Positions 34,060 through 40,176 are shown, counted from the stretch's first letter. The stretch: DNA of 64,000 bases from Escherichia coli (GCF_045037415.1 NZ_CP173438.1); one strand, 5' to 3'. A program made the numbers and translations. Notes: a model not told the origin generated them from the sequence alone.

Positions 34060-34077
34060 CTGGCACGAACCCTGCAA
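34060..34077 (+). promoter_or_regulatory. sigma54 (-24/-12) promoter of astCADBE
   Basis: TGGCAC-gaacc-CTGCA about 75 bp upstream of astC; nearby AT-rich palindromes consistent with ArgR boxes. Confidence 0.6.
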
Positions 34078-34148
34078 TCTACATTTACAGCGCAAACATT
34101 ACTTATTATTAACATATAAATAACTAATTATTTACTGTAGAGGTCGCT

Positions 34149-35369
34149 ATGTCTCAGCCAATTACGCGTGAAAACTTTGATGAATGGATGATACCTGTTT
34201 ACGCTCCGGCACCGTTTATACCGGTACGTGGCGAAGGTTCGCGCTTGTGGGAGCAGCAGGGGAAAGAGTATATCGACTTCGCGGGTGGCATTGCGGTGAA
34301 CGCGCTGGGCCATGCGCATCCGGAACTGCGTGAGGCGCTGAACGAACAGGCGAGTAAGTTCTGGCATACCGGCAACGGTTACACCAACGAGCCGGTACTG
34401 CGACTGGCGAAAAAATTGATCGACGCCACGTTTGCCGATCGCGTCTTCTTTTGTAACTCCGGTGCGGAAGCCAACGAAGCGGCGCTAAAACTGGCGCGTA
34501 AATTCGCTCACGACCGCTACGGCAGCCATAAGAGCGGCATCGTGGCGTTCAAAAATGCGTTTCATGGTCGCACGCTGTTTACTGTCAGTGCGGGTGGGCA
34601 GCCAGCCTATTCACAGGATTTTGCGCCACTGCCGCCGGATATTCGTCATGCTGCATATAACGATATTAACTCTGCCAGTGCGCTGATTGACGACGCCACC
34701 TGTGCGGTGATTGTCGAACCCATCCAGGGGGAAGGCGGTGTGGTGCCAGCCAGCAACGCATTTTTACAAGGTCTGCGTGAATTGTGTGACCGCCACAATG
34801 CGTTGCTTATCTTTGATGAAGTACAAACCGGTGTCGGGCGCACCGGGGAACTGTATGCCTATATGCACTACGGCGTGACGCCTGATCTGTTAACTACCGC
34901 CAAAGCGCTGGGCGGCGGTTTCCCGGTTGGTGCGTTGTTGGCAACCGAAGAGTGCGCCAGCGTGATGACCGTTGGCACTCACGGCACCACCTATGGCGGC
35001 AATCCGCTGGCCTCGGCGGTGGCAGGCAAAGTGCTGGATCTCATCAACACGCCAGAGATGCTTAACGGGGTTAAACAGCGTCACGACTGGTTTGTTGAGC
35101 GTCTAAATTCCATTAATCACCACTACAGTTTGTTCAGTGAAGTTCGCGGCTTAGGTCTTTTGATTGGCTGTGTACTGAATGCCGATTACGCCGGGCAAGC
35201 GAAACAGCTCTCTCAGGAAGCGGCGAAAGCAGGCGTGATGGTGCTGATTGCGGGTGGCAACGTGGTGCGTTTTGCGCCAGCGCTCAATGTCAGCGAAGAA
35301 GAGGTGACGACCGGACTGGAGCGCTTTGCAGCTGCTTGCGAACACTTTGTTAGCCGAGGTTCATCATGA
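34149..35369 (+). CDS. astC: succinylornithine transaminase
   Basis: 406 aa class-III aminotransferase. Confidence 0.93.
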
Positions 35370-36400: not shown

Positions 36401-37875
36401 CTTTATGGATTAACGGTGACTGGGTAACGGGCCAGGGCGCATTGCGTGTGAAGCGTAATCCGGTATCGGGCGAGGTGTTATGGCAGGGCAATGATGCCGA
36501 TGCTGCTCAGGTCGAGCAGGCTTGTCGGGCTGCCCGAGCGGCGTTTCCGCGCTGGGCGAGGCTCTCATTTAGCGATCGTCAGGTAAGAGTTGAACGCTTT
36601 GCCGGATTGCTGGAAAGCAATAAAGCTGAATTAACCGCGATTATTGCCAGAGAAACCGGCAAGCCGCGCTGGGAAGCGGCAACCGAAGTGACGGCGATGA
36701 TCAATAAAATCGCGATATCAATTAAGGCGTATCACGTTCGTACCGGTGAGCAGCGTAGCGAAATGCCGGACGGCGCGGCGAGCTTGCGCCATCGTCCGCA
36801 CGGCGTACTGGCAGTGTTTGGACCGTATAATTTCCCTGGTCATCTGCCGAACGGACATATTGTTCCGGCATTGCTGGCAGGTAACACCATTATTTTTAAA
36901 CCCAGCGAACTGACACCGTGGAGTGGCGAAGCGGTAATGCGTTTATGGCAGCAGGCTGGCTTGCTGCCGGGCGTGCTGAACCTGGTGCAGGGCGGGCGTG
37001 AAACGGGTCAGGCGCTGAGTGCGCTGGAGGATCTCGACGGTTTGCTGTTTACCGGCAGCGCCAATACCGGCTACCAGCTGCATCGCCAGCTTTCCGGTCA
37101 GCCGGAGAAAATTCTCGCCCTTGAGATGGGCGGTAATAACCCGCTAATTATCGATGAGGTGGCGGATATCGATGCCGCTGTCCATCTGACCATTCAGTCG
37201 GCGTTTGTCACTGCCGGGCAACGCTGCACCTGCGCCCGCCGTTTATTGCTGAAAAGTGGAACGCAGGGCGATGCATTTCTTGCTCGCCTGGTTGCCGTCA
37301 GCCAGCGGTTAACGCCGGGCACTTGGGATGACGAACCGCAGCCGTTTATTGGCGGGCTGATTTCTGAGCAGGCCGCACAGCAGGTGGTTACTGCCTGGCA
37401 GGAACTGGAGGCGATGGGCGGACGGCCCCTGCTTGCGCCGCGCTTATTACAAGCAGGGACATCGTTGCTGACGCCGGGGATCATTGAAATGACAGGCGTT
37501 ACTGGCGTGCCGGATGAAGAAGTGTTTGGGCCGTTATTGCGCGTCTGGCGTTATGACAATTTCGATGAAGCGATTCGAATGGCGAATAACACTCGCTTCG
37601 GCCTCTCTTGCGGTCTGGTTTCCCCCGAGCGGGAAAAATTCGATCAACTGTTGCTGGAGGCACGGGCGGGGATTGTTAACTGGAACAAACCGCTTACCGG
37701 TGCTGCCAGTACCGCGCCATTCGGCGGCATTGGCGCTTCCGGCAATCATCGCCCCAGCGCCTGGTATGCCGCAGATTATTGTGCCTGGCCGATGGCAAGT
37801 CTGGAGTCGGACTCGTTAACGTTGCCCGCAACGCTTAACCCCGGGCTGGATTTTTCCGATGAGGTGGTGCGATGA
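36397..37875 (+). CDS. astD: succinylglutamate-semialdehyde dehydrogenase
   Basis: 492 aa from [10 protein letters not shown]; aldehyde dehydrogenase family. Confidence 0.92.
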
Positions 37876-39215
37876 ACGCCTGGGAAGTCAATTTCGACGG
37901 GCTGGTAGGGCTGACGCACCATTACGCGGGCCTGTCGTTTGGTAATGAAGCCTCTACCCGTCACCGTTTTCAGGTGTCTAACCCGCGACTGGCGGCAAAA
38001 CAGGGCTTACTGAAAATGAAAAAACTTGCCGATGCGGGATTCCCCCAGGCCGTGATCCCGCCGCACGAGCGTCCGTTTATTCCGGTGCTGCGTCAGTTGG
38101 GATTCAGTGGTAGCGATGAGCAGGTACTGGAAAAAGTTGCACGCCAGGCACCGCACTGGCTTTCCAGCGTCAGTTCCGCTTCGCCAATGTGGGTAGCCAA
38201 TGCGGCAACGATCGCGCCATCCGCCGATACGCTGGATGGCAAAGTGCATCTCACTGTTGCTAACCTGAACAATAAATTTCACCGTTCGCTGGAAGCCCCC
38301 GTCACCGAATCGCTGTTAAAAGCGATTTTTAACGACGAAAAGAAATTTAGCGTCCATTCGGCGTTGCCGCAGGTAGCCTTGCTCGGTGATGAGGGGGCGG
38401 CAAACCACAATCGTCTCGGCGGTCATTACGGTGAACCGGGTATGCAACTTTTTGTCTACGGGCGAGAAGAGGGCAATGATACCCGGCCTTCCCGTTATCC
38501 GGCGCGGCAGACCCGTGAAGCCAGCGAGGCGGTGGCAAGGTTGAATCAGGTGAATCCCCAACAGGTGATTTTCGCCCAGCAAAACCCGGACGTTATCGAC
38601 CAGGGCGTTTTTCATAATGACGTGATTGCCGTGAGTAACCGCCAGGTGCTGTTTTGCCATCAACAGGCGTTCGCTCGCCAGTCACAGTTACTGGCAAATC
38701 TGCGTGCACGGGTCAGTGGTTTTATGGCAATAGAGGTGCCCACGGCGCAGGTTTCCGTGTCAGATGCGGTGTCTACTTATCTGTTTAACAGCCAACTGCT
38801 GAGCCGCGATGATGGTTCCATGATGTTGGTGCTGCCTCAGGAATGTCGGGAACATGCTGGAGTATGGTGTTATCTCAATGAATTGCTTGCTGCCGATAAC
38901 CCAATAAGCTCACTAAAAGTTTTTGATTTACGTGAAAGCATGGCGAATGGCGGTGGCCCGGCGTGCCTGCGGCTGCGCGTGGTGTTGACAGAAGAAGAAC
39001 GCCGGGCGGTGAATCCGGCGGTGATGATGAACGATACGCTGTTTAATGCGCTCAATGACTGGGTGGATCGTTACTACCGCGATCGTCTTACTGCGGCGGA
39101 TCTTGCCGATCCACAATTGCTGCGCGAAGGACGGGAAGCGCTGGATACACTGACTCAATTATTGGATCTTGGTTTGGTTTATCCATTCCAGCGCGAGGGA
39201 GGGGGAAATGGATAA
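37872..39215 (+). CDS. astB: N-succinylarginine dihydrolase
   Basis: 447 aa; overlaps astD stop. Confidence 0.92.
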
Positions 39216-40176
39216 TTTTCTTGCTCTGACCTTAACGGGTAAAAAACCGGTTATCACCGAGCGAGAAATCAACGGCGTTCGCTGGCGCTGGCTGGGCGAT
39301 GGCGTGCTGGAACTGACGCCATTAACGCCACCGCAAGGCGCACTGGTGATTTCAGCGGGAATACACGGTAATGAGACGGCACCTGTGGAAATGCTGGATG
39401 CGTTGCTTGGCGCGATATCTCACGGCGAGATCCCGTTACGTTGGCGGTTGCTGGTGATCCTCGGGAATCCTCCTGCGCTGAAGCAAGGGAAACGTTATTG
39501 CCATAGCGATATGAACCGAATGTTTGGCGGTCGTTGGCAGCTATTTGCTGAAAGCGGGGAAACCTGTCGGGCGCGCGAACTGGAACAGTGCCTGGAAGAT
39601 TTTTATGACCAGGGCAAAGAATCTGTGCGCTGGCACCTTGATCTCCATACCGCAATTCGTGGCTCCTTGCATCCGCGGTTCGGTGTATTACCGCAACGCG
39701 ACATTCCCTGGGACGAGAAATTTCTGACGTGGCTGGGTGCGGCGGGTCTGGAGGCACTGGTGTTCCATCAGGAGCCTGGTGGTACGTTTACCCATTTCAG
39801 CGCCAGACATTTTGGCGCGCTGGCCTGTACGCTGGAACTCGGCAAAGCGTTGCCCTTTGGACAAAACGATCTTCGCCAGTTTGCAGTAACTGCCAGCGCA
39901 ATTGCTGCGCTGCTATCTGGTGAGAGTGTCGGTATCGTGAGAACACCGCCGCTCCGTTATCGGGTGGTTTCGCAAATTACTCGCCACTCGCCGTCCTTCG
40001 AAATGCATATGGCAAATGACACGCTGAATTTTATGCCGTTTGAGAAAGGAACATTGCTGGCGCAGGACGGGGAGGAACGTTTTACCGTAACCCATGATGT
40101 AGAGTATGTGTTATTCCCTAATCCGTTGGTAGCGTTGGGATTACGTGCGGGATTAATGCTCGAAAAAATAAGCTAA
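39208..40176 (+). CDS. astE: succinylglutamate desuccinylase
   Basis: 322 aa from MDNFLALTL; overlaps astB end. Confidence 0.9.

Follow-up and report, generated by a model that had tools for sequence, protein, structure and literature searches.

We analyzed a 64,000-nucleotide window of the Escherichia coli genome (GCF_045037415.1, NZ_CP173438.1), numbered from its first base and given as the plus strand, in which the span under study (34060-40176) runs from the first base of a σ54 promoter motif to the stop codon of astE. The locus is the E. coli astCADBE operon of the arginine succinyltransferase pathway. We base this identification on 100% DNA identity of the 6.7-kb ast region to several complete, annotated E. 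coli genomes and on matches of all five proteins to NCBIfam equivalog or subfamily models above their curated cut-offs, and an earlier interpretation made without database searches (the sequence-only reading) had therefore named the operon correctly. Scores in bits against the respective cut-offs were 842 against 630 for AstC, 731 against 521 for AstA, 845 against 579 for AstD, 802 against 538 for AstB, and 480 against 306 for AstE. Of 5426 complete E. coli genomes, 5424 contain this region.

The five genes lie on the plus strand in the order C-A-D-B-E, without internal gaps, in the xthA-spy neighborhood, and their coordinates match those given by RefSeq for an identical strain. They encode succinylornithine transaminase (astC, 34149-35369, 406 amino acids [aa], with a Shine-Dalgarno GAGG at 34140-34143), arginine N-succinyltransferase (astA, 35366-36400, 344 aa), succinylglutamate-semialdehyde dehydrogenase (astD, 36397-37875, 492 aa), N-succinylarginine dihydrolase (astB, 37872-39215, 447 aa), and succinylglutamate desuccinylase (astE, 39208-40176, 322 aa). 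A mechanical open reading frame call starts astD at 36340, which differs from the annotated start at 36397. For comparison across species, we used AstA as the query to fetch 80 orthologous loci from different species of Enterobacteriaceae; 67 of these have all five genes, undisrupted and in this order. An Rfam scan at gathering level detected no RNA family within the ast region. In E. coli strain 1439 (NZ_CP184045.1), window positions 33700-40400 (6701 bases) match in two pieces that together span 7478 bp, indicating an insertion of ∼777 bp, the size of an insertion sequence, somewhere within the xthA-ast-spy region of that strain.

Upstream of astC lies a -24/-12 element, CTGGCACGAACCCTGCA (34060-34076, +), which by its identity in sequence is the published σ54 promoter astCp2. 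It consists of TGGCAC (34061-34066), the spacer gaacc (34067-34071), and CTGCA (34072-34076), and 72 nt separate its 3' end from the start codon of astC (34149), which is where the sequence-only reading had put the element. The core TGGCACgaaccCTGCA (34061-34076) has a single mismatch to TGGCAC-N5-TTGCA, with GG at 34062-34063 and GC at 34074-34075. Matches to this consensus with at most one mismatch are expected by chance ∼2.4 times per 64-kb window, and the match by itself therefore carries no significance. To score the site, we used a leave-one-out σ54 matrix made from 41 other intergenic motifs identified by chromatin immunoprecipitation sequencing (ChIP-seq) (Bonocora et al. 2015, PMC4591121). 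The astCp2 site had the best score in the window, 17.8 bits, compared with 14.9 bits for the second-best site and a training-set median of 15.5 bits, and 17.8 bits was reached anywhere in 11 of 200 shuffled windows. The runner-up, GTGGCGCAAATTATGCT inside ynjE (25935-25951, -), is, apart from one base (GTGGCGCAGATTATGCT), the intragenic σ54 ChIP-seq site IS23 of K-12 (PMC4591121), indicating that the matrix detects real sites.

Binding data from two relatives bear directly on this element. The 17-mer is identical to the K-12 ChIP-seq motif OS17 (FAT 7, flagged “C” as confirmed in EcoCyc), whose peak center is 1 bp from the motif center and whose predicted start lies 62 nt from astC (PMC4591121); the start predicted here, 34087, is at the same distance from the ATG. 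At the orthologous position of the Salmonella Typhimurium ast operon (STM1303-1307), where NtrC is the predicted activator, the site TGGCACGAATGCTGCAAT, which differs from that of the window in two spacer bases, was positive by σ54 ChIP-chip with 4-fold enrichment (PMC3844500). Based on sequence identity, the σ54 occupancy measured in K-12 and Salmonella would extend to the strain examined here. We also aligned 76 Enterobacteriaceae upstream regions with MAFFT and read the alignment as a footprint. The best matrix match fell 71 to 75 nt before the astC ATG in 75 of the 76 regions, and TGGCAY-N5-NTGCA was present in all of them, with invariant GG and GC cores and a spacer that takes 19 forms, the signature of selection acting on the contacts rather than on the spacer.

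The sequence-only reading had also held that a mapped transcription start incompatible with the -24/-12 element would speak against it, and the comparison with a mapped start revealed a second promoter instead. Genome-wide data for K-12 map an ast start to 1830063 and give a 5' untranslated region of 57 nt (Kim et al. 2012, PMC3415461, supplementary file 2), and the 51-nt K-12 promoter string is identical to window positions 34042-34092, which places the start at 34092. This position is 5 nt downstream of the predicted σ54 start, an offset too large for a -12 GC at 34074-34075, and 34092 is therefore not the σ54 start. A conserved C-TACATT (34079-34085) does end 7 nt before it, and we recognize here a σS/70-type promoter (34079-34092, +) with C at -13 and TACATT as the -10 hexamer (34080-34085); TCTACATT is conserved across species. 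The cells of Kim et al. were nitrogen replete, with NH4Cl in the medium (PMC3415461). Since ammonium should keep an NtrC-dependent promoter silent, and since 34092 fits the overlapping -10 element, the mapped start does not contradict the -24/-12 element. The ast operon has been described as having two promoters, one dependent on σ54 and one on σS (PMC4014581), in line with the nitrogen and stationary-phase regulation named in the sequence-only reading, and we infer that 34092 belongs to the σS promoter. A σ70 scan of the ast control region returned nothing relevant; the CTACATT -10 escapes it for want of a -35. We also considered TTGAT (34015-34019) as a -35 element paired with a TTTATG -10, which matches at 3 of 6 positions, lacks the final T, and has no reported start; for these reasons, we prefer to read TTGAT as part of the site for integration host factor (IHF) described below.

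Farther upstream, the footprint of the 76 species shows a background of 20 to 60% identity broken by sharply conserved blocks. Among them are two NtrC-like sites 20 bp apart, each matching TGCACC-N5-GGTGCA at 9 of 12 positions: site A, TGCCCGCTTTTGGTGCG (33826-33842), centered at about -253 relative to the predicted σ54 start, and site B, TGCGTCAGAATGGCGCA (33846-33862), centered at about -233. In site A, the GC cores of both half-sites are >90% conserved and the spacer varies; in site B, the GC dinucleotides at 33847-33848 and 33860-33861 are invariant. Versions of these sites in other genera are nearer to the consensus (for example, TGCACCATTTT). NtrC binds and controls the ast region in K-12 (PMC4066584). 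Next comes a 38-bp block, AAATTTCG-N5-GATCACAATTCCAGAATTATATTT (33875-33912, -212 to -175), with at least 90% identity at most positions. Aligned by hand against consensus sequences, it contains a perfect right half of a CRP site (TCACA) with a left half of 2/5, a 12/15 Lrp-like match, and a weak ARG-like match. CRP has been named as a regulator of ast (PMC3590144), and astC as a direct Lrp-activated target (10.1101/276808). We rejected the CRP reading of this block based on the poor left half and on a center near -200, which is unfit for class I or class II activation.

The sequence-only reading had noted AT-rich palindromes consistent with binding by ArgR. A candidate ArgR operator does lie at 33968-34006, centered on 33987 (about -100), and would comprise two 18-bp ARG boxes (33968-33985 and 33989-34006) with a 3-bp gap, the arrangement of the canonical operator (PMC6640053). 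An AT-rich dyad, 33971-33986 against 33988-34003, was found independently; it is 81% complementary, and its center coincides with that of the box pair. The ARG half-box wnTG(A/C)ATA occurs upstream of astC in five conserved copies. In 76/76 species, two of these, the inner half-sites ATKCA-N7-TGMAT, are set 7 nt apart, exactly as at the inner junction of the canonical two-box, 3-bp-spaced operator. The boxes match the consensus WNTGAATWWWWATTCANW at 13/16 and 10/16 positions by hand count. Geometry and conservation thus agree with the palindrome claim, which fares less well on the consensus match. Further ARG-type elements are TCTGCATAACATTGCGTT at 33916-33933, which was among the matches of a window-wide ARG-box scan, matches the same consensus at 11/16 positions by hand count, and has its left half TG(C/A)ATA in all species, and the half-site TTATGCAC at 34040-34047 (about -44), where TTATGCA is kept in 72/76 species. 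Secondary accounts describe astCp as a weak σ54 promoter to which ArgR naturally binds, and superinduction by ArgR is likewise stated (PMC3590144 among others). The main text of an ArgR ChIP-exo paper does not mention astC. On the strength of conservation and literature, and not of the consensus match, we regard the operator as a candidate.

Between the ARG boxes and the promoter lies an exact match to the IHF core consensus, AATCAAGCAGTTA (core WATCAANNNNTTR; 34008-34020, -), centered at about -73. At the aligned position, 70/76 species have an exact match, and the NNNN spacer takes at least 12 forms; specified positions are 90 to 100% conserved and unspecified ones 0 to 70%. Across the Enterobacteriaceae, conservation of the core is as strict as that of the promoter, and the block from -212 to -175 is its equal in this respect. 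No AT-rich tract flanks 34008-34020. The idea that IHF and ArgR would jointly shape the 240-bp enhancer loop, as opposed to ArgR substituting for IHF, is one that we hold to be doubtful. Were IHF to bind and the site to be undescribed, ast would be a σ54 promoter with an IHF-plus-ArgR enhancer loop.

All four internal gene junctions overlap, as the sequence-only reading had reported. Read directly on the plus strand and in agreement with RefSeq, they are ATGA overlaps of 4 bp at astC/astA (35366-35369), astA/astD (36397-36400), and astD/astB (37872-37875) and an 8-bp overlap, ATGGATAA, at astB/astE (39208-39215). Each internal start has a Shine-Dalgarno sequence inside the upstream gene (GAGG, AGAGGAG, GAGGTGG, and GAGGGAGGGGG, in order). 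In the annotation tables, we counted by hand about 3 overlaps among the 19 other tight same-strand gene pairs in the window, none of them in the ATGA manner, so the ast arrangement is unusual locally. The 4-bp overlap is found in 72 of 74 species at astC/astA and in 71 of 76 at astA/astD, where the remainder overlap by 1 bp; at astD/astB, 52 of 75 species overlap by 4 bp, 20 by 14 bp, and 3 by 1 bp. The 8-bp astB/astE overlap occurs in 20 of 71 species (Escherichia, Citrobacter, and Salmonella), and nearly all others have a gap of 3 to 12 nt. About 20 loci at first suggested an AstB-AstE fusion, with overlaps of 963 to 975 bp, which we discarded because the tblastn alignments had run through the astB stop; when each reading frame is followed from its own start codon, the true gaps there are 8 to 12 nt.

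Outside Escherichia, Citrobacter, and Salmonella (loci L026 to L081 of our set; for example, L027 at 8820-8845), the astB stop lies ∼6 codons earlier (…CAGCGCTAA), and astE starts 8 to 12 nt after astB, with an AGGAG that overlaps the stop codon. Based on this earlier stop, the E. coli overlap looks like a derived extension of the AstB C terminus.

Downstream, a GC-rich hairpin with 11 bp begins 5 nt after the astE stop (40181-40206, +) and probably ends the operon. Its predicted folding energy is -20.3 kcal/mol (z = -6.4), and none of 200 shuffled sequences folds as well.

Taken together, we read the locus, at a probability of about 0.93, as astCADBE with overlapping σ54 and σS/70-type promoters, control by NtrC and ArgR, a single mRNA, and tightly packed frames. 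In the mechanism that we propose, σ54 RNA polymerase would sit at 34060-34076 as a closed complex, which phosphorylated NtrC bound ∼230 to 250 bp upstream would open under nitrogen limitation. ArgR with arginine on the ARG boxes near -100, possibly together with IHF at -73, may bend the 240-bp loop, and arginine would thereby superinduce the operon. In stationary phase, σS polymerase would use the CTACATT -10 just downstream of the -12 element and start at 34092. A single mRNA would run from astC to the hairpin just 3' of astE, and the packed frames, in which each stop overlaps the next start, may favor translation in equal ratios through ribosome hand-over. Our analysis directly establishes the gene identities, the -24/-12 element with its match to the ChIP-bound site and its conservation, the overlaps, and the start at 34092; the regulatory logic follows published work.

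Several observations weigh against this reading. The start at 34092, the sole mapped ast start that we compared, differs from the predicted σ54 start. Within the window, matches to the NtrC-type consensus occur at chance frequency, so our case for sites A and B draws on their position and conservation; likewise, the 14-mer ARG core with at most 3 mismatches occurs 86 times, compared with 97 in shuffled sequence, and the IHF consensus is at chance frequency window-wide (∼3 matches). The NtrC ChIP-seq interval for ast, K-12 1830021-1830101 (PMC4066584), maps to about 34054-34134, that is, to the core promoter and 5' untranslated region, and not to -233/-253. Because the nac, yeaG, and ddpX peaks in the same study show the same offset, it is probably a feature of the data set, reflecting either resolution or cross-linking through the DNA loop. 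At the junctions, no RNA structure sequesters the downstream ribosome sites, each of which has its own Shine-Dalgarno sequence. Finally, the tail of the hairpin, AUUAAGUUGCUUUCUU, is weakly U-rich with no clean U-tract, and a simple terminator scan made no call at 40181-40206.

The most radical alternative is that the -24/-12 match is fortuitous and that the operon is driven solely by the σS/70-type promoter at 34092. The chance expectation for the consensus and the position of the one mapped start would both allow this, but σ54 ChIP occupancy exactly on the motif in K-12 and on its Salmonella orthologue already contradicts it, as do the GG and GC cores kept in 76/76 species while the spacer drifts and the published NtrC dependence (PMC3844500, PMC4066584). 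The mapped start itself was measured with ammonium, a condition in which a promoter that depends on NtrC should be off, and we give the fortuitous match practically no credence. A narrower challenge concerns the upstream DNA, where the AT-rich palindrome and the other conserved blocks might be sites for IHF, Lrp, and CRP and not for ArgR. The exact and conserved IHF core, the CRP right half and Lrp-like match of block 33875-33912, the listing of astC as a direct Lrp-activated target and of CRP as a regulator, the chance frequency of ARG-like matches, and the low score of the second box (10/16) all lean that way. They are nevertheless compatible with ArgR binding, as separate blocks may serve separate proteins, and the five conserved ARG half-boxes with their canonical 7-nt gap, the shared center of dyad and box pair, and ArgR binding and superinduction of astCp as reported in secondary accounts favor ArgR at the palindrome. 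We consider the exchange of ArgR for these other proteins quite unlikely.

The junctions leave more room for disagreement. They might reflect genome compaction only, with ribosomes initiating separately at the Shine-Dalgarno sequence of each gene and no functional coupling. Good Shine-Dalgarno sequences do precede all four internal starts, and folding of the four junction RNAs gave no excess of structure over shuffled sequences (z of -0.1 to +1.6), so ribosomes could load directly and coupling is not required; at astB/astE, the 3- to 12-nt gap in most genera makes the overlap dispensable there. On the other hand, overlaps of 4, 1, 10, or 14 bp are present at the first three junctions in practically all species examined, which points to selection on the arrangement, and here four of four overlap compared with about 3 of 19 other tight pairs. 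A stop/start overlap is also the classic substrate for termination-reinitiation. We therefore regard compaction without coupling as possible at somewhat less than even odds. Translational coupling is plausible from the sequence, in that hand-over would be allowed with nothing enforcing it; the statement in the sequence-only reading that the overlaps imply coupling is sound as far as consistency goes and too strong in its verb.

The astCADBE operon, its pathway, its σ54 promoter, and its regulators are already known, having been in print since 1998-2002 and entered in standard databases, and every element highlighted by the sequence-only reading has been described before, in keeping with its own verdict that the locus is a clean example rather than a novelty. 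Details that are possibly undescribed are limited to the conserved IHF core and the 38-bp block in the enhancer loop. The locus is useful as a positive control, in which a reading from sequence recovered a true σ54 promoter and the correct operon boundaries and a simple matrix of ChIP-seq motifs ranked the two true σ54 sites of the window first and second. The overlapping σS/70-type -10, the NtrC-like sites, the IHF core, and the hairpin had gone unnoticed in the sequence-only reading. The cross-species footprint additionally supplies base-level candidates for NtrC, ArgR, and IHF contacts.

The closest known system is K-12 astCADBE (b1748-b1744), which has the same genes, order, junctions, and xthA and spy neighbors. 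Its astCp2 is identical to the window in the σ54 17-mer and over 51 nt, counted from -50 up to and including the mapped start, and the K-12 operon differs only by strain-level single-nucleotide polymorphisms, such as AACGAATTA for the window's aactaatta in the 5' untranslated region near 34125. K-12 has an additional internal start at 1826591 (20 reads, Kim et al. 2012), 308 nt upstream of astB, corresponding to ∼37564 (+) inside astD. The -10 region there reads GTTATGACAATTTCG in the window and GTTATGATACTTTCG in K-12, and the internal promoter may therefore be weaker or absent in the strain examined here. Salmonella Typhimurium likewise has both σ54 and σS promoters (PMC4014581), and the loci of two Salmonella subspecies (L022 and L023) carry the same ARG-like and IHF-like conserved blocks. 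According to a review, ArgR is needed for arginine induction in Salmonella and is not essential in E. coli.

Promoters of the glnHp2 type are described as weak σ54 promoters with NtrC bound upstream and a DNA-bending protein in between, IHF at glnHp2 and ArgR at astCp. The window's astCp2 resembles this type in having a conserved IHF core too, but its candidate NtrC sites are unusually far upstream (about -233 and -253), the loop contains several conserved blocks, and a σS/70-type promoter overlaps the core promoter. The aru genes of Pseudomonas aeruginosa carry out the same pathway chemistry, and the NCBIfam AOST subfamily model matches AstA of the window. P. aeruginosa has two succinyltransferase subunits, AruF and AruG, and its aru genes are controlled by an AraC-type ArgR and not by a hexameric ArgR with NtrC and σ54.

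Some further features were noted in the neighborhood of the operon. In the RefSeq annotation of the identical strain, xthA (32897-33703, -) is the divergent neighbor and spy (40506-40991, +) the downstream one. The K-12 xthA start at 1830423 maps to 33732 (-) and is preceded by a conserved GC-TACCAT -10 (33739-33746) with C at -13, within a block (33733-33750) that is at least 90% conserved across Enterobacteriaceae; this -10 fits the dependence of xthA on σS. In the astE-spy spacer, positions 40241-40291 (+) are identical to the promoter string of a published K-12 start, apparently that of spy, with a 215-nt leader; the string's last base, 40291, is thus a long way 5' of the spy start codon (40506). 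The sole Rfam gathering-level match in the window is the small RNA ES036 (CssrF; 42.9 bits) in the cho-nadE spacer (42724-42766, -), where it adjoins nadE just downstream and on the nadE strand. Between yniD and thrS, at about 59884-60908 (-), a frameshifted pseudogene of the ShET2/EspL2 family of type III secretion effectors, annotated in the matching RefSeq genome, looks like the remnant of an accessory gene in an otherwise core region.

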